Below, in pieces: positions 2,088 to 63,887 of a DNA stretch of 64,000 bases (the stretch's first letter is position 1; each line of letters starts with the position of its first letter). The notes under the pieces were generated by a model. The model did not search any database and was not told where the DNA came from. It saw nothing but the letters and a program-made list of their open reading frames with translations. The translations under genes and the position numbers were made by a program. Source of the stretch: Candidatus Woesearchaeota archaeon (GTDB lineage Archaea; Nanobdellota; Nanobdellia; Woesearchaeales; GW2011-AR4); the NCBI GenBank assembly GCA_018303625.1, contig JAGVXV010000016.1:7317-71316 (forward strand). Reading direction: 5' to 3'.

Positions 2088-4262
2088 ATGGCAGAAAAGA
2101 TGGTTGACAGGGTAATGAGGATTATGAAGATTCCCAATCATATCAGGAATATCGCCATTTGCGCCCATATAGACCACGGCAAAACAACTTTTTCCGATAA
2201 TCTGCTGGCAGGAGCCGGAATGATGTCAAAGGAGGATGCCGGCAAAGCCCTGAAGCTTGATTTCCATGCAGACGAGCAGGAAAGAGGCATTACAATAGAC
2301 ACAGCGGCAGTGAGCATGGTCCATAATATCGGCAGCGAGGAATATCTCGTCAATTTGCTCGACACGCCGGGCCACGTTGATTTTGGAGGGGATGTAACAA
2401 GGGCTATGCGTGCAGCAGACGGCGCAATTGTTTTGGTTGATGCTGTAGAAAGCATAATGCCCCAGACAGAAACAGTTTTGAGGCAGGCCTTGCGCGAATT
2501 AGTAAAACCAACTTTATTCATCAACAAAGTTGACCGCTTAATTAAAGAATTGCAGCTAACGCCGGAGCAGATGCAGGAAAGGTTTGTAAAAATCATAACT
2601 TCTGTGAACAGGTTTATCAAAGAGATTGCGCCCAAAGGCTATGGCGAAAAATGGCAGGTAAATGTCCAGGACGGCTCTGTATGCTTTGGAAGCGCGTACC
2701 ATAAATGGGCCTTGTCAGTGCCTTACATGCAGAAAAAAAGCATAACATTCAAAGATGTAATTGAGTATTACCAGGAAGGCGAGAGGTACAAAGAGCTTGC
2801 TGATAAAGCCCCCTTGCATGAAGTTGTCCTGAACATGGTTGTGGGCCATCTGCCAAATCCGCAGGATGCGCAAAAATACAGGATTCCTAAGATATGGCAT
2901 GGGGAGCATGAAAGCGAAGACGGCAAAGCTTTGCTTAACTGCGACCCAAACGGCAACTTGTTCTTTGTCATAACCAAGATTGTAATTGACCCTCAGGCCG
3001 GCGAGATTTCTGCAGGAAGGCTGTTTTCAGGGACAATGAAAAAAGGCCTTGATGTATATTTGAACAGGATGAAGCAGCAAAGCAAGATACAGCAGGTGTT
3101 CATCTACAACGGGGCAAAAAGGGAAATTGTTGACAGCGCGCCCGCAGGCAACATTATAGGAGTAGCAGGAGTAAAAAGCTATGCAGGCGAAACAATAACA
3201 TTGACCCAGACAGAGCCATTTGAAAAAATAACGCATATTTTTGATCCTGTTGTCACAAAGGCCATTGAAGCAAAAAAGCCGAGCGAGCTGCCAAAATTAA
3301 TTGAGGTTTTAAAGCAGGTAGGGAAAGAGGATCCTACAATACAGATTGAGATTGATGAAGAGACAGGAGAGCATTTGATGCACGGCATGGGAGAGCTTCA
3401 CCTGGAAGTTATTGAAAACAGGATAAGGACTGAAAAAGGCGTTGATGTTCAAACAAGCCCGCCGATTGTTGTTTATAGAGAAACAATAACAAAGCCGGGG
3501 CAGGAGGCAATGGGCAAAACGCCAAACAAGCATAATCACCTGTTTTTTAAAGTAGAGCCATTGGATGATGCAACTTACGAAGCGATTAAAAAAGGCGAGA
3601 TTCAGGAAACAAGAATAAAAAAGAAAGACTTGTCTTTAAGGGACAAGCTGGTTGAATGCGGGTGGGACAGCAAAGAAGCATTAAAGATAAAGGACATTTA
3701 CAAGGGCAATATTCTTGTCGACGGCACAAGGGGCCAGGTTCATGTCGGCGAGATTATTGACATGATCCTTGACATGTTTGAGGATGTCATGTCAGCAGGG
3801 CCTATTGTAAAAGAGCCGTGCATCAAGGCAAAGGTCATCTTGACTGATATGAAGCTGCATGAAGATGCCATACATCGCGGCCCTGCGCAGGTTTATCCTG
3901 CGGTGAGGGAAGGAATCAGGGGAACCTTTATGACTGCAAGGCCTTTAATCTACGAGCCTTTGCAGATATTGCAGATAGAAGCTCCCGCGGATTTTTTAGG
4001 AGAAATATCAAAGCTGATAAGCAACAAAAGGGGCCAGCTGCTTGATGCGCAGCAGGAAGGCAATACAATCATTATAAAAGCCAAGATGCCTGTTGCGGAA
4101 ATGTTCGGCTGGAGCTCTGACTTAAGAAGCTCAACAAGCGGAAGAGGCTCTTCTTCTTTGATAGATCAAATGTTTGAAAAATTGCCTGAAGAACTGCAGG
4201 ACAGGGTAATAAAGCAGATAAGGGACAGGAAGGGCCTGACAGAGGCGCAGGTCGGGGTTTGA
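2088..4262 (+). CDS. fusA: Translation elongation factor 2 (aEF-2)
   Basis: 724 aa; GTPase G1 AHIDHGKTT; diphthamide-site HRGPAQ near C-terminus; length fits aEF-2 rather than aIF5B. Confidence 0.9.
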   Translation: MAEKMVDRVMRIMKIPNHIRNIAICAHIDHGKTTFSDNLLAGAGMMSKEDAGKALKLDFHADEQERGITIDTAAVSMVHNIGSEEYLVNLLDTPGHVDFGGDVTRAMRAADGAIVLVDAVESIMPQTETVLRQALRELVKPTLFINKVDRLIKELQLTPEQMQERFVKIITSVNRFIKEIAPKGYGEKWQVNVQDGSVCFGSAYHKWALSVPYMQKKSITFKDVIEYYQEGERYKELADKAPLHEVVLNMVVGHLPNPQDAQKYRIPKIWHGEHESEDGKALLNCDPNGNLFFVITKIVIDPQAGEISAGRLFSGTMKKGLDVYLNRMKQQSKIQQVFIYNGAKREIVDSAPAGNIIGVAGVKSYAGETITLTQTEPFEKITHIFDPVVTKAIEAKKPSELPKLIEVLKQVGKEDPTIQIEIDEETGEHLMHGMGELHLEVIENRIRTEKGVDVQTSPPIVVYRETITKPGQEAMGKTPNKHNHLFFKVEPLDDATYEAIKKGEIQETRIKKKDLSLRDKLVECGWDSKEALKIKDIYKGNILVDGTRGQVHVGEIIDMILDMFEDVMSAGPIVKEPCIKAKVILTDMKLHEDAIHRGPAQVYPAVREGIRGTFMTARPLIYEPLQILQIEAPADFLGEISKLISNKRGQLLDAQQEGNTIIIKAKMPVAEMFGWSSDLRSSTSGRGSSSLIDQMFEKLPEELQDRVIKQIRDRKGLTEAQVGV

Positions 4263-4342: not shown

Positions 4343-5629
4343 ATGGCTAAAGGAAAAGTTCATATAAACCTGGTATTTATGGGCCATGTTGATCATGGCA
4401 AAAGCACTACAGTAGGAAGACTTCTTTACGATTCAGGCACTGTTTCCGAGCAGGAAATGAGAAAGCTGAAGGAAAAGGCTGAAGAGCTTGGAAAAGGCGG
4501 CTTTGAATTTGCCTTCGTCATGGACAACCTTAAAGAGGAGAGGGAGAGAGGTTTAACAATAGATTTGGCGCATAAGAAATTTGAAACGCCAAAATATTAC
4601 TTTACAATAATTGATGCCCCGGGGCACAAGGATTTCATTAAAAACATGATTACCGGCGCTGCCCAGGCAGATGCAGGAGTTCTTGTTGTGAGCGCGAATC
4701 CAGGAGATGGAATACAGGCTCAAACAAAGGAGCACGTTTTCCTGGCAAGGACACTGGGAGTAAACCAGCTTATGATTGCAGTAAACAAGATGGATATGGC
4801 AAAGTATGACCAAAAGAGATTTGAGCAGCTAAAAGCCGAAGTTTCAACATTATTGCAAAGTGTCGGCTATAAGCCTCAGGAAATACCATTTATACCAATA
4901 GCATCTTTGCACGGCGACAATGTAGTTAAAAAATCAGCAAACATGCCTTGGTATACCGGCGGCACACTGTTGGAAAATTTTGATAAGCTAAAAGAGCCTG
5001 AAAAGCCGACAAATTTGCCTTTAAGGCTGCCTATACAGGATGTTTATAACATAACAGGCATAGGAGTTGTTCCTGTAGGAAGAGTCGAGACAGGGATAAT
5101 GAAGATTAATGATAAGGTCATAGTTGTGCCAGCAAGGGAAGGAAAAGGAATTGCCGGGGAAGTCAAGACAATAGAGATGCACCATGAGCAGATGCAGCAG
5201 GCCGAGCCGGGAGACAACATAGGCTTCAACGTAAGAGGCATAAACAAAAAGGATATTGCAAGAGGAGATGTTTTAGGGCATGCTGACAAGGCTCCTACTG
5301 TCGCAGTGGAATTTACCGCTCAGCTGGTTGTTTTGAACCATCCCAGTGTTATTACAGTTGGCTACACGCCTGTTTTCCACGTGCATACCGCGCAGGTTGC
5401 ATGCCAAATCACTGAGATTGTGAAGAAACTTGACACAAGGACTGGCCAGACATTGCAGGAAAAGCCGGACTTCATAAAAAATGGGGACGCGGCTATAGTC
5501 AAGGTAAAGCCTGTACAGCCGCTGGTTATTGAAAAGCAGAACGAGATTCCCCAGCTTGCAAGGTTTGCAGTAAGGGACTCCGGAACAACAGTAGCAGCGG
5601 GAATGTGCATAGATCTTGTAAAGAAATAA
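4343..5629 (+). CDS. tuf: Translation elongation factor 1-alpha (aEF-1alpha)
   Basis: [21 protein letters not shown] GTPase motifs; start set at MAKGK (4343) preceded by GGTGGT SD-like tract; track ORF begins 4313. Confidence 0.9.
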
Positions 5630-8572: not shown

Positions 8573-8692
8573 ATCATAAGATTTGAATATTTAAGTATAT
8601 AAATCTTTCTATTTTTAACCACTTTATAATGGTTAATTTTATAAAAACAATTACAAATAAGCTTTTAAAACAAAATGAATTACTTATATCGT

Positions 8693-8821
8693 GCCACGGT
8701 CGCATAACCCGGTAGTGCGGCAGTCTCGAAGCTTCAGGCTATGCATGATGTCCGCGAAATCGCAGATTTCGAGCTAACTGCTGTCCGCAAGGACTTCTCG
8801 GTTCAAATCCGAGCCGTGGCG
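8693..8821 (+). tRNA. tRNA-Ser(CGA), class II, with canonical 37/38 intron (~45 nt)
   Basis: GCCACGG-TC-GCAT-AACCCGGTA-GTGC-G-GCAGT-CTCGAA[intron, helix CTCGAA/TTCGAG]A-ACTGC-T-GTCC-GCAA-GGAC-TT-CTCGG-TTCAAAT-CCGAG-CCGTGGC-G. Confidence 0.7.
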
Positions 8822-8856
8822 TAAAGTTTTAATATAACCACTCGTTAGTAAAATAT

Positions 8857-9991: not shown

Positions 9992-10010
9992 TTCTTGAGA
10001 AATAAATAAG

Positions 10011-10132
10011 TGCCGCTGGCGATATTTGAAATCACGACCTCTACGTAACCCAGTTAAGCTAAATCATCTCCCTGCGGATCAGAGCTCATAATATATGAGC
10101 GTAGCGCTCTAACCAGGCTGAGCTACAGCGGC
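10011..10132 (-). tRNA. tRNA-Met(CAU), elongator type (G1-C72), with ~47-nt 37/38 intron
   Basis: rc reads GCCGCTG-TA-GCTC-AGCCTGGTTA-GAGC-G-CTACG-CTCATA[intron, helix CTCATA/TATGAG]A-CGTAG-AGGTC-GTGAT-TTCAAAT-ATCGC-CAGCGGC-A. Confidence 0.7.
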
Positions 10133-59699: not shown

Positions 59700-59796
59700 G
59701 GGCCCGTGGTCTAGTCCGGTATGATAACTCCTTTACACGGAGTAGGTCACCAGTTCAAACTGTTAATTAGCCATCATGAAAGTCTGGTCGGGCCCA
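59700..59796 (+). tRNA. tRNA-Val(UAC) with ~22-nt T-loop insertion
   Basis: GGGCCCG-TG-GTCT-AGTCCGGTA-TGAT-A-ACTCC-TTTACAC-GGAGT-AGGTC-ACCAG-TTCAA[actgttaattagccatcatgaa]AGT-CTGGT-CGGGCCC-A. Confidence 0.7.
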
Positions 59797-59797
59797 T

Positions 59798-59884
59798 GCG
59801 CGAGTGATCTAATGGCTATGATTGGGCCTTGCCAAGCAGAAATGCGAAAAGAGGCTCCCATCCGGGTTCGAATCCCGGCTCGCG
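59798..59884 (+). tRNA. tRNA-Gly(GCC) with ~15-nt 37/38 intron; 1-nt spacer after tRNA-Val (dicistronic)
   Basis: GCGCGAG-TG-ATCT-..-TGAT-T-GGGCC-TTGCCA[agcagaaatgcgaaaag]A-GGCTC-CCAT-CCGGG-TTCGAAT-CCCGG-CTCGCGC-A. Confidence 0.7.
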
Positions 59885-59904
59885 CATTTAATTTTATTTT
59901 TGAT

Positions 59905-60005
59905 TACTTTTTAATATTTAAAAAGCTGCGAGTTATCTTGGCGGCGCCATTGACGCGCCGCATCCATAATCGCCACATTGCGGGCGACTATGTTGCGCGA
60001 CATCA
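59905..60005 (+). other. GC-rich ~100-nt element with two look-alike 7-bp GC-clamped hairpins (loops CATTGAC / ATCATTG)
   Basis: GCGGCGC-cattgac-GCGCCGC and GCGCGAC-atcattg-GTCGCGC; stands out against ~30% GC spacer between the tRNA-Val/Gly pair and tRNA-Ile. Confidence 0.4.
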
Positions 60006-60114
60006 TTGGTCGCGCCAAATTTCTTTAAGTTTTTTTATTTTTGAACGAATTTTATAATACTGTTATTTATCAGAAACTTTTAAATATAATGTATTATTCT
60101 TCCAAGCTGTTTTT

Positions 60115-60216
60115 GGGCCCGTAGCTCAGCCTGGTTAGAGCGACGGTCTTATATGGCATCGCTCTACGCAGCTCTAAGTGAGCCGTAGGTCGAGAGTTCA
60201 AATCTCTTCGGGCCCA
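60115..60216 (+). tRNA. tRNA-Ile(UAU) with ~27-nt 37/38 intron
   Basis: GGGCCCG-TA-GCTC-AGCCTGGTTA-GAGC-G-ACGGT-CTTATA[intron]A-GCCGT-AGGTC-GAGAG-TTCAAAT-CTCTT-CGGGCCC-A; anticodon TAT. Confidence 0.65.
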
Positions 60217-60280
60217 CCTTCACTATTTCTTAGTAGTTAAATTAGAAAGATTTAAAAAATAATGCCCATTAGAGAAGCAA

Positions 60281-61333
60281 ATGAGCAAGTATCTTTTTAA
60301 TGAAAAATCTCCAAAGCAGGAAGCAGTTATTGTATCTAGCGGTCTTGATGACGAAGAGCGCCGATTGGTCAAATCGGTTGTTGAATGGGATTTTCCAAAT
60401 GAATGGGCTAAAAACCTATTTGCAGTCCATGGAAGGAGTATCGTTTTTAAAAGTCCGACAAGAACAGGGTGTATTGATGATTATCTTGAAGGCAGATTTG
60501 ATGGGCTGCAGTTAGTTGGTGTTGGGGGAAGCTTGTACTATGTTAGATCTGGAATGGTAGAAAGACCCGGAATTTTGGTTATTGACCAGCCAGACCCTAA
60601 GAATCATGCAGAAATGTTAAGTGATATAACAGAATTAAGGGATTTTGACAATGAAGGAAAAATTGTATTCTCCAATAGAAAATACGTTCCTTTAAGAGGT
60701 ATGGATCTGGGGGAAGCGCAAAATCGTAAAAGATTCACAGCAATAGTCAGAGGCATGGTAGAAAAATTCAGGCAAGAAAATATAAGACTGCCATTCGTAG
60801 CTCCGGAAATTGCTGCGGAGGGGTATTTTCCAAAAAAAATAGATGATGGAAACACGCCTCTGCAATTTCAGGTTTATAGAGTGCCTATAATTCCTAGGTT
60901 CCCCAGTCAAACAACAGACAGGTTCTATCAAGGAGGAGATGTAAGGGATATGTTGGATCTCATTGGATTTGTTACCCATAAGATGGGAAAAGTTTTAAGG
61001 TCATTTCACGCCAATGATCTTGCCTATATGGACAGCCATCTTGGAAATATTAGCCTTATTAGTAATAACAAATCTGATGCCATTTACACCACAGACCTTG
61101 GCAGCATGAAGGAGTTTTCCAATGAGAAGTTCCCGAGAAGATACATGGGATTTGATGCATATTCCTTTTTGTTTAGTGCCATGAAACATACAGAGGCCAT
61201 ATTGAATTTTTTTCAATCAAAGATTTTAGTAAATGGGGCCGAAATTGAAGATAGAAAAATTGCTTTATTGCATCTAGCAAATAGCTACATTGATAGTTTT
61301 CTTAATGGATATTTTCGGCCCGAGGAAATATGA
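60281..61333 (+). CDS. Hypothetical protein with protein-kinase-like catalytic/activation motifs
   Basis: FHANDLAYMDSHLGNISL (H.D....N-like) followed by IYTTDLGSMKEF (DFG-like DLG); 350 aa; no P-loop seen. Confidence 0.5.
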   Translation: MSKYLFNEKSPKQEAVIVSSGLDDEERRLVKSVVEWDFPNEWAKNLFAVHGRSIVFKSPTRTGCIDDYLEGRFDGLQLVGVGGSLYYVRSGMVERPGILVIDQPDPKNHAEMLSDITELRDFDNEGKIVFSNRKYVPLRGMDLGEAQNRKRFTAIVRGMVEKFRQENIRLPFVAPEIAAEGYFPKKIDDGNTPLQFQVYRVPIIPRFPSQTTDRFYQGGDVRDMLDLIGFVTHKMGKVLRSFHANDLAYMDSHLGNISLISNNKSDAIYTTDLGSMKEFSNEKFPRRYMGFDAYSFLFSAMKHTEAILNFFQSKILVNGAEIEDRKIALLHLANSYIDSFLNGYFRPEEI

Positions 61334-62219: not shown

Positions 62220-63693
<1,474 letters not shown>

Positions 63694-63770: not shown

Positions 63771-63887
63771 GGGCCCGTAGCTCAACCGCAGAGCGCTGCC
63801 CTTGCACGAAGCAATTCGATGAAAGGCAGAGGCTTCGGGTTCAAAATTAAGGCCCAAGGGCTTTAGATGAAAGTCCCGACGGGTCCA
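63771..63887 (+). tRNA. ITS tRNA-Ala(UGC), G3:U70, with 37/38 intron plus T-loop insertion
   Basis: GGGCCCG-TA-GCTC-AACCGCA-GAGC-G-CTGCC-CTTGCA[cgaagcaattcgatgaa]A-GGCAG-AGGCT-TCGGG-TTCAA[aattaaggcccaagggctttagatgaa]AGT-CCCGA-CGGGTCC-A. Confidence 0.65.

Follow-up and report, generated by a model that had tools for sequence, protein, structure and literature searches.

The usual archaeal route to reading AUA codons is a tRNA-Ile2(CAU) that bears agmatidine made by TiaS. Three lineages of archaeal Richmond Mine acidophilic nanoorganisms (ARMAN) carry instead a tRNA-Ile with a UAU anticodon, tRNA-Ile(UAU), while tRNA-Ile(CAU) and TiaS are both missing (Fujishima et al., 2011; PMC3239211). In ARMAN-2 the gene is interrupted at position 37/38 by an intron of 25 nt, in a strict bulge-helix-bulge (BHB) motif of the hBHBh' form that was spliced in vitro (PMC3239211), and it was still a standard BHB substrate in a 2025 structural study (PMC12397907). 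A survey of 167 archaeal genomes published in 2018 reported tRNA-Ile(UAU) only in Korarchaeum and Nanoarchaeum, and read these as isolated gains (PMC6000648). Outside the Archaea, the tRNA-Ile(UAU) of yeast receives pseudouridine at positions 34 and 36 (psi34 and psi36) from Pus1 only on the intron-containing precursor (PMC4090602; see also PMC9602550), and Mycoplasma mobile leaves the UAU anticodon without modification, its isoleucyl-tRNA synthetase (IleRS; Arg865) and ribosome being adapted to it (PMC3575796). Here, an intron-containing tRNA-Ile(UAU) gene at positions 60115-60216 on the plus strand of a stretch from a Candidatus Woesearchaeota archaeon (GenBank assembly GCA_018303625.1, contig JAGVXV010000016.1; all 64 kb of DNA that were analyzed are termed the window) is compared with these systems, with emphasis on how widely genes of this kind occur and on an antisense element in their introns. 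The gene and its surroundings comprise the following features:

60078..60089, plus strand: A/T-rich box TTTTAAATATAA, lying ~25-35 nt upstream of the first base of the mature tRNA (read by eye)
60115..60153, plus strand: 5' exon, tRNA positions 1-37 (Rfam, ARAGORN -i, manual parse, folding)
60150-60152, plus strand: anticodon TAT, that is U34, A35 and U36 (direct reading)
60154..60180, plus strand: intron UGGCAUCGCUCUACGCAGCUCUAAGUG, 27 nt, at position 37/38 (ARAGORN -i, BHB geometry)
60181..60216, plus strand: 3' exon, tRNA positions 38-73, with A38 and discriminator A73 (Rfam, ARAGORN -i)

The original prediction of a tRNA-Ile(UAU) at 60115-60216, with a TAT anticodon and a 37/38 intron, is confirmed: this is a genuine tRNA gene with a UAU anticodon. 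The Rfam tRNA covariance model (RF00005) matches the plus strand there over its full length (model positions 1-71) with 59.1 bits (E = 3e-10), against a gathering score of 29 bits, and places a 28-nt insert after CUUAUA. ARAGORN with intron detection (-i) reports a tRNA-Ile(tat) from 60115 to 60218 whose intron of 27 nt, i(40,27), lies at the canonical site; its default run returned zero tRNAs in the whole window because intron detection was off. Read directly, the acceptor stem is GGGCCCG/CGGGCCC followed by A73, the D stem is GCUC/GAGC, and the anticodon stem is ACGGU/GCCGU; the T arm is GAGAG-UUCAAAU-CUCUU and the variable loop is AGGUC. Splicing leaves a 7-nt anticodon loop, CUUAUAA, with U33, A37, and A38, and the anticodon is therefore UAU. 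The cloverleaf is the minimum free energy (MFE) fold of the spliced 75-nt product, at -29.8 kcal/mol. CC directly follows the 3' exon, and a complete CCA is not encoded. The TTTTAAATATAA box is probably the gene's own archaeal TATA-type promoter; similar boxes precede the tRNA-Val and CAU tRNA genes of the window, which, in this by-eye reading, suggests a separate archaeal promoter for each.

An NCBI protein annotated as 'Candidatus Woesearchaeota archaeon' matches the window's elongation factor EF-2 (2088-4262) with 100% identity, and the named relatives are nearly all Woesearchaeota/Nanoarchaeota; the window is therefore from an archaeon of the Diapherotrites-Parvarchaeota-Aenigmarchaeota-Nanoarchaeota-Nanohaloarchaeota (DPANN) group. 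This agrees with the expectation in the original prediction of a reduced-lineage host, since a tRNA-Ile(UAU) in the reported absence of TiaS is known from DPANN archaea (PMC3239211). The GC content of the window is 39%, and Rfam identifies an archaeal 16S rRNA downstream of the gene:

62220-63691, strand not stated: archaeal 16S rRNA (Rfam)

An exact (100%) copy of the tRNA-Ile(UAU) gene is carried by each of at least five metagenome contigs that were assembled independently (L001-L003, L005, and L164), and homologues that differ by compensatory stem changes are present on more than 100 DPANN contigs. In the closest species-level relatives captured, L059 and L015 (84% and 81% identity, respectively, over the 5' end of the 16S rRNA), a tRNA(UAU) likewise lies just upstream of the 16S rRNA gene. 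A scan of one genome per GTDB species with the pattern GGGC...TRGCTCA...GAGC...CTTATA gave at least 120 matches. About one quarter of the species-level matches listed belong to DPANN archaea, namely Woese-, Pace-, Micr-, Aenigmat-, and Iainarchaeota, together with unclassified archaea, and about three quarters (within L007-L126) belong to the candidate phyla radiation (CPR; Patescibacteria) and a few other bacteria, the CPR genes being intron-less and of bacterial type. When a second scan of metagenome contigs, for which an archaeal-length D-loop was required, is added, the two scans together yield at least 84 distinct intron-containing and at least 24 intron-less archaeal-type tRNA(UAU) genes, such that the intron is kept in 84 of the 108 archaeal-type genes (~78%) that were parsed among the matches listed.

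It follows that tRNA-Ile(UAU) is widespread across DPANN archaea and CPR bacteria. The original prediction had treated the trait as limited to a few lineages, exemplified by Nanoarchaeum and Korarchaeum, and this restriction is contradicted by the scans, as is the view of isolated, species-specific gains taken in the 2018 survey (PMC6000648). A literature search found no statement that tRNA-Ile(UAU) is widespread in DPANN or present in Woesearchaeota, and a search linking TiaS with DPANN or CPR returned nothing relevant beyond the ARMAN paper (PMC3239211). The bacterial form also appears common in CPR/Patescibacteria, and no paper was found that says so. As of 2013, the bacterial tRNA-Ile(UAU) solution was known from nine species.

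The Woesearchaeote gene is thus ordinary for its lineage, and its kind has been known since the description of ARMAN in 2011. The genes of ARMAN-2, ARMAN-4, and ARMAN-5 (Micrarchaeota/Parvarchaeota) share with it the UAU isoleucine tRNA, a 37/38 intron of hBHBh' type (25 versus 27 nt), and a DPANN host with a reduced genome, and the mature ARMAN tRNA is closely similar to the Micrarchaeota genes found here (L036, L079, and L124). They differ in what is established, in that the absence of TiaS and tRNA-Ile(CAU) in ARMAN is genome-wide and splicing was observed in vitro, whereas the Woesearchaeote gene is known here from 64 kb of sequence. Nanoarchaeum equitans and Korarchaeum cryptofilum have the same archaeal UAU isoleucine tRNA, with an intron in the Korarchaeum gene, and belong to different phyla. 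The tRNA-Ile2(UAU) of M. mobile and the CPR genes resemble the window's gene in their small genomes and in using a UAU of unmodified type in place of a modified C34; they differ in being bacterial and intron-less, and in being served by a bacterial-type IleRS with Arg865 as the key determinant.

AUA is heavily used in the window. Across 55 long open reading frames (ORFs), it accounts for 631 of 16,695 codons (37.8 per 1000), which makes it the third most frequent codon and 43% of the isoleucine codons. AUA is not a preferred isoleucine codon in most prokaryotes. In the highly expressed EF-1alpha (4343-5629), AUA occurs 18 times, AUU 11 times, and AUC once, so that AUA is there a preferred rather than a rare codon; because this preference extends even to EF-1alpha, discrimination between AUA and AUG by a tRNA with U34 matters for the fidelity of the whole proteome. 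The amino acids aligned with these codons indicate that AUA is decoded as isoleucine. When 112 EF-2 homologues with identities no higher than 85% are aligned, the residues in columns where the window has an AUA codon are isoleucine (84%), valine (14%), and essentially never methionine (~0%), a pattern shared with the AUU columns, while the AUG columns are 85% methionine. Similarly, 15 of the 18 AUA codons of EF-1alpha align with isoleucine or valine in the structure from Pyrococcus horikoshii and 13 of 18 in that from Aeropyrum pernix. Indirect signs of isoleucine identity, A73, A37, and A38, are present in the tRNA itself, in keeping with the alignment of AUA with isoleucine and valine.

The other part of the usual route, TiaS with its substrate, was sought with the Archaeoglobus fulgidus TiaS, all 420 residues of which match PDB 4RVZ chain Z, 'tRNA(Ile2) 2-agmatinylcytidine synthetase TiaS'. 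In tblastn searches, no TiaS was found in the window or in 126 fetched loci (~1.3 Mb, which are uninformative samples), the best E value being 3.2, and Pfam detected no TiaS domains among 40 ORFs of the window. The original prediction had taken the UAU gene itself to imply that TiaS is absent. This does not follow, because some bacteria carry tRNA-Ile(UAU) alongside tilS (PMC3575796), and a UAU gene alone is thus no proof that a C34-modifying enzyme has been lost. A genome without TiaS is nonetheless plausible, and probably the case, in the light of the precedent from DPANN and of how heavily AUA is used; the search itself covered the window. A single CAU tRNA is present in the window:

10010-10132, minus strand: CAU tRNA, the only one in the window, with G1-C72, acceptor strand GCCGCUG, and a 47-nt intron (Rfam 52 bits, sequence, ARAGORN -i)

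The G1-C72 pair and an anticodon stem without a run of G-C pairs indicate that this CAU tRNA is not an initiator. The original prediction stands in this respect, and in naming this tRNA as the only CAU tRNA of the window; its use of G1-C72 as a mark of an elongator tRNA-Met does not stand, as the same pair is equally expected of a tRNA-Ile2(CAU). Compared with the tRNA-Ile(UAU), the acceptor stem differs at four of seven pairs (GCCGCUG versus GGGCCCG) and the anticodon and T stems also differ, whereas no difference is seen in the D-arm or the variable loop. Archaeal isoleucine isoacceptors usually share a GGGCC acceptor, and a GCC start is typical of elongator tRNA-Met. The acceptor difference favors an elongator tRNA-Met, short of proof, and this is the likely identity of the CAU tRNA as judged from its stems. 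The CAU and GAU tRNAs gathered from the DPANN loci included too few archaeal examples to separate tRNA-Met from tRNA-Ile2, and the literature consulted offered no workable rule for telling the two apart.

The intron of the tRNA-Ile(UAU) gene lies in a BHB of textbook hBHBh' geometry. A 4-bp central helix pairs C32-U33-U34-A35 (60148-60151) with U-A-A-G (60175-60178) and is flanked by bulges of 3 nt each, UA|U (60152-60154) and UG|A (60179-60181), in which both splice sites are placed symmetrically after the second base of the bulge. This helix is intact at all four pairs in 64 of the 84 related intron-containing genes, and the central helix is conserved in 64-77 of the 84. The outer helix h', which in its strict form has at least 2 bp, is marginal in the window's gene (G-C and G.U only); a 3-bp h' is found in 23 of the 84 homologues versus 9.7 +/- 2.1 by permutation. 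A box C/D guide intron of the tRNA-Trp type was considered and ruled out, as UGGCAUCGCUCUACGCAGCUCUAAGUG has neither a C box (RUGAUGA) nor a D box (CUGA), and no Rfam C/D family matched the intron.

Folding of the unspliced transcript points to a second structure that excludes the cloverleaf, and this structure is built from two complementary segments:

60136..60143, plus strand: target UAGAGCGA, comprising the 3' end of the D-loop, the 3' strand of the D stem, G26, and A27 (folding, enrichment)
60159..60166, plus strand: intron block UCGCUCUA, intron nt 6-13, antisense to the 3' strand of the D-arm (folding, enrichment, permutation)

The block UCGCUCUA is perfectly complementary to UAGAGCGA, and further pairs are possible between intron nt 2-4 (GGC) and G30-U31-C32, so that, over exon positions 20b-32, antisense complementarity to the intron's 5' half extends to 11 of 13 positions. 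In the predicted anti-D hairpin, U33-U34-A35-U36-A37 and intron nt 1 form a 6-nt apical loop. Before splicing, the transcript has an MFE fold other than the cloverleaf: the best anti-D fold is at -43.1 kcal/mol versus -34.8 kcal/mol for the best fold with cloverleaf and BHB, and in the ensemble the anti-D helix has pair probabilities of 0.79-1.0 while those of the D stem, the anticodon stem, and the BHB helix are close to 0. A helix between the 5' strand of the D stem and the 3' splice junction, which appeared in a constrained fold, was dropped as not conserved in homologues by eye. In the 2025 study, cleavage was sampled at 30 min for pre-tRNA-Ile(UAU) of ARMAN-2 and at 5 min for pre-tRNA-Cys (PMC12397907), a difference that may be a weak hint, by analogy, of an effect of the antisense fold on splicing.

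Taken together, these observations argue that the gene is very probably a functional, independently transcribed, minor tRNA-Ile(UAU) gene of a Woesearchaeota archaeon that replaces or supplements the TiaS route. The fresh transcript would first adopt the long hairpin, with U33-A37 in its 6-nt loop, and be remodeled to the cloverleaf with BHB before splicing. The archaeal splicing endonuclease would then remove the intron at the BHB, ligation would give a mature 73-nt tRNA with the loop C-U-U-A-U-A-A, and the CCA end would be completed post-transcriptionally. The tRNA would be charged by the archaeal (eukaryote-type) IleRS and read AUA through a U34:A pair, and in doing so it would replace, or at least supplement, tRNA-Ile2(CAU) with its TiaS-made agmatidine; by analogy with ARMAN, Nanoarchaeum, and Korarchaeum, both TiaS and tRNA-Ile2(CAU) would be missing from the rest of the genome. 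Misreading of AUG could be avoided by modification of U34 on the intron-containing precursor, in analogy to the psi34 and psi36 that Pus1 makes in eukaryotes, or alternatively by adaptation of the ribosome and IleRS, as for the unmodified U34 of M. mobile. Pfam detected no pseudouridine synthase among the 40 ORFs of the window. The alternative fold could order anticodon modification before splicing, or could expose the D-arm, a situation comparable to the lambda form of tRNA that a review mentions as used by ArcTGT.

Several points weigh against this interpretation. The function of the gene is predicted from sequence, and TiaS and a tRNA-Ile2(CAU) may exist in the genome outside the 64-kb window; the G1-C72 pair of the window's CAU tRNA fits a tRNA-Ile2 equally. 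The outer helix h' of the modeled BHB is weak in this gene (G-C and G.U), and the predicted splice-competent fold lies ~8 kcal/mol above the alternative, so that efficient splicing is an assumption of the model. Redundant decoding, in which the genome also has TiaS and a tRNA-Ile2(CAU), possibly the one at 10010-10132, and the UAU tRNA supplements the agmatidine route, takes up the first of these points: the window is 64 kb of a genome of roughly 1 Mb, there are bacteria that keep tilS beside tRNA-Ile(UAU) (PMC3575796), and the CAU tRNA has, besides its G1-C72, a D-arm identical to that of the UAU tRNA. It is nevertheless unlikely, as neither TiaS nor tRNA-Ile(CAU) is present in the ARMAN relatives, no TiaS was found in the window or in the ~1.3 Mb of uninformative fetched loci, and the acceptor, anticodon, and T stems of the CAU tRNA are all unlike those of the isoleucine gene. 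A non-functional pseudogene or chance tRNA-like sequence, to which the empty default run of ARAGORN and the non-cloverleaf MFE fold of the unspliced transcript might point, is very improbable in view of a 59-bit match with perfect stems, a canonical BHB, and an A37/A38/A73 context, of identity across independent assemblies and homologues conserved with compensatory stem changes on more than 100 contigs, and of a heavy use of AUA for which no other decoder was seen in the window. Finally, a tRNA with U34 is able in principle to read both AUA and AUG, and AUA might have been reassigned to methionine as in many mitochondria, with the UAU tRNA acting as a methionine acceptor that reads AUR; this reassignment was excluded, with hardly any probability left to it, by the EF-2 and EF-1alpha columns, which hold isoleucine or valine and essentially never methionine opposite AUA and methionine opposite AUG, and a separate CAU tRNA is present in the window.

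The complementarity between intron and exon recurs among the relatives of the tRNA-Ile(UAU) gene. When every exon 7-mer was mapped against the intron core in all 84 intron-containing genes and the counts were compared with 200 shuffles, only two sites in the whole tRNA were enriched as targets. The first, the 3' strand of the D-arm, is targeted in 25-26 of the 84 genes versus 1.7-3.7 expected (z 12-18) and includes the window's gene; the second, the 3' strand of the anticodon stem with the start of the variable loop (positions 39-46), is targeted in 14-16 of the 84 versus ~1.9 expected (z 9-10). Whatever the length of the intron, which ranges from 16 to 57 nt, the start of the antisense block falls at intron nt 5-8 in every case, and the block is usually followed by N(0-2)-ACA, which is conserved. 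Upstream of the block, 62 of the 84 genes have G-R-C at intron nt 2-4, and in 63 of the 84 these three nucleotides are able to pair with the invariant G30-U31-C32. In the anticodon-stem class the block tracks the sequence of its own gene: GCCGAAGG occurs with CUUUCGGU, GCCAGGGG with CUUCUGGC, GCUGGAGG with CCUUCAGC, and GCCGUAGG with CUUACGGC, and 13 genes have matches at all eight positions versus 3.6 +/- 1.6 under permutation of the targets between genes (at most 9 in 300 permutations). Of the 13 introns available from other tRNAs in these loci, only those of one tRNA-Tyr and of the window's CAU tRNA had an anti-D block; in the 47-nt intron of the CAU tRNA, an 8-bp block, GCUCUGAU, is antisense to the 3' strand of that tRNA's own D-arm (shuffle p = 0.044).

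The enrichment statistics of the antisense element are solid, with covariation for one class, and its function is inferred. It is suggested, tentatively and with more doubt than confidence, that, under selection, the 5' half of these introns serves as an antisense module that would lock DPANN pre-tRNA-Ile(UAU) in an unspliceable fold displaying U33-A37, and that could act as a checkpoint or presentation device for anticodon modification before splicing, or in unfolding the D-arm. In the D-arm class, covariation is modest (21 versus 15.0 +/- 1.8 by permutation, with a maximum of 20) and counts against such a module; a D-arm that hardly varies, together with G.U pairs that hide what changes there are, accounts for this weakness. 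The near-invariance of the D-arm, with the modest difference between own and permuted complementarity, also suits another explanation, in which the pairing itself is not selected and the complementarity is an inherited motif kept for other reasons, such as a protein-binding site, or a relic of the origin of the intron. The 26 carriers of the anti-D block may share descent, and the conserved N(0-2)-ACA that follows the block is left unexplained by pairing. This explanation is a real possibility that stops short of being probable, since complementarity is enriched at just two exon sites (z of ~18 and ~10), the second class tracks its own variable anticodon-stem sequence well beyond permuted targets (13 versus 3.6 +/- 1.6), and the start of the block is fixed at intron nt 5-8 regardless of intron length.

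Described introns offer partial parallels to the suggested antisense module. Eukaryotic tRNA-Ile(UAU) (PMC4090602, PMC9602550, PMC11912914) shares the UAU anticodon, a 37/38 intron that pairs with the anticodon region, and the problem of telling AUA from AUG, whereas the archaeal BHB is cut by the archaeal endonuclease and an intron antisense to the D-arm is not a described eukaryotic feature. The intron of Haloferax tRNA-Trp, a box C/D guide for Cm34 and Um39 (PMC4090602), is also an archaeal intron antisense to its own exons; the window's intron, in contrast, has 27 nt, is without C/D boxes, and targets the 3' strand of the D-arm and not positions 34 and 39. No description of the intron antisense element was found in a literature search of incomplete coverage, and the element seems undescribed. 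The gene itself adds little, in that a Woesearchaeote joins the archaea that read AUA with UAU. Its wider value is that such genes are common in DPANN and CPR, two ultra-small, reduced-genome radiations, while the surveys found treat tRNA-Ile(UAU) as a rare, species-specific gain. If the antisense module is real, it would provide a handle on why introns of tRNA-Ile(UAU) persist in archaea and eukaryotes and on how U34 is handled before splicing; it would be an archaeal counterpart of the intron-dependent psi34 and psi36 of eukaryotes and would explain intron retention in both domains. The wide DPANN/CPR distribution and the conserved intron antisense module are thus worth following up.

The window holds seven tRNA genes, all of which contain introns. 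Besides the tRNA-Ile(UAU) and the CAU tRNA, they include:

8692-8822, strand not stated: tRNA-Ser(CGA), 45-nt intron (ARAGORN -i only; not in Rfam at E <= 5)
59700-59796, strand not stated: tRNA-Val(UAC), 24-nt T-loop intron (partial in Rfam, missed by ARAGORN)
59798-59886, strand not stated: tRNA-Gly(GCC), one base after tRNA-Val (Rfam)
63771-63887, strand not stated: tRNA-Ala(UGC), downstream of the 16S rRNA, with two introns, one of ~17 nt (37/38) and one of ~29 nt (T-loop) (Rfam)

Given their single-base spacing, the tRNA-Val and tRNA-Gly genes are almost certainly co-transcribed. A 93-aa ORF at 59776-60057 runs over tRNA-Gly and intergenic sequence and is, almost certainly, a spurious call; in sibling contigs, too, ORFs are extended or placed by gene callers so as to cross the tRNA cluster. 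At 61323/61324, six sibling contigs (L001-L006) have 85 extra bases, with which the ORF that starts at 60281 encodes 403 aa without a Pfam match, while the copy in the window is frameshifted and stops at 350 aa; the missing bases are either a strain deletion or an assembly error. Near position 63196 (16S position ~977), the 16S rRNA of the window is without 62 nt of conserved core (AACUCACCAGGAGCGACGGCAGGAUGAAGGUCAGG...) that are present in the sibling contig L005, and this gap is probably an assembly artifact or a defective copy.

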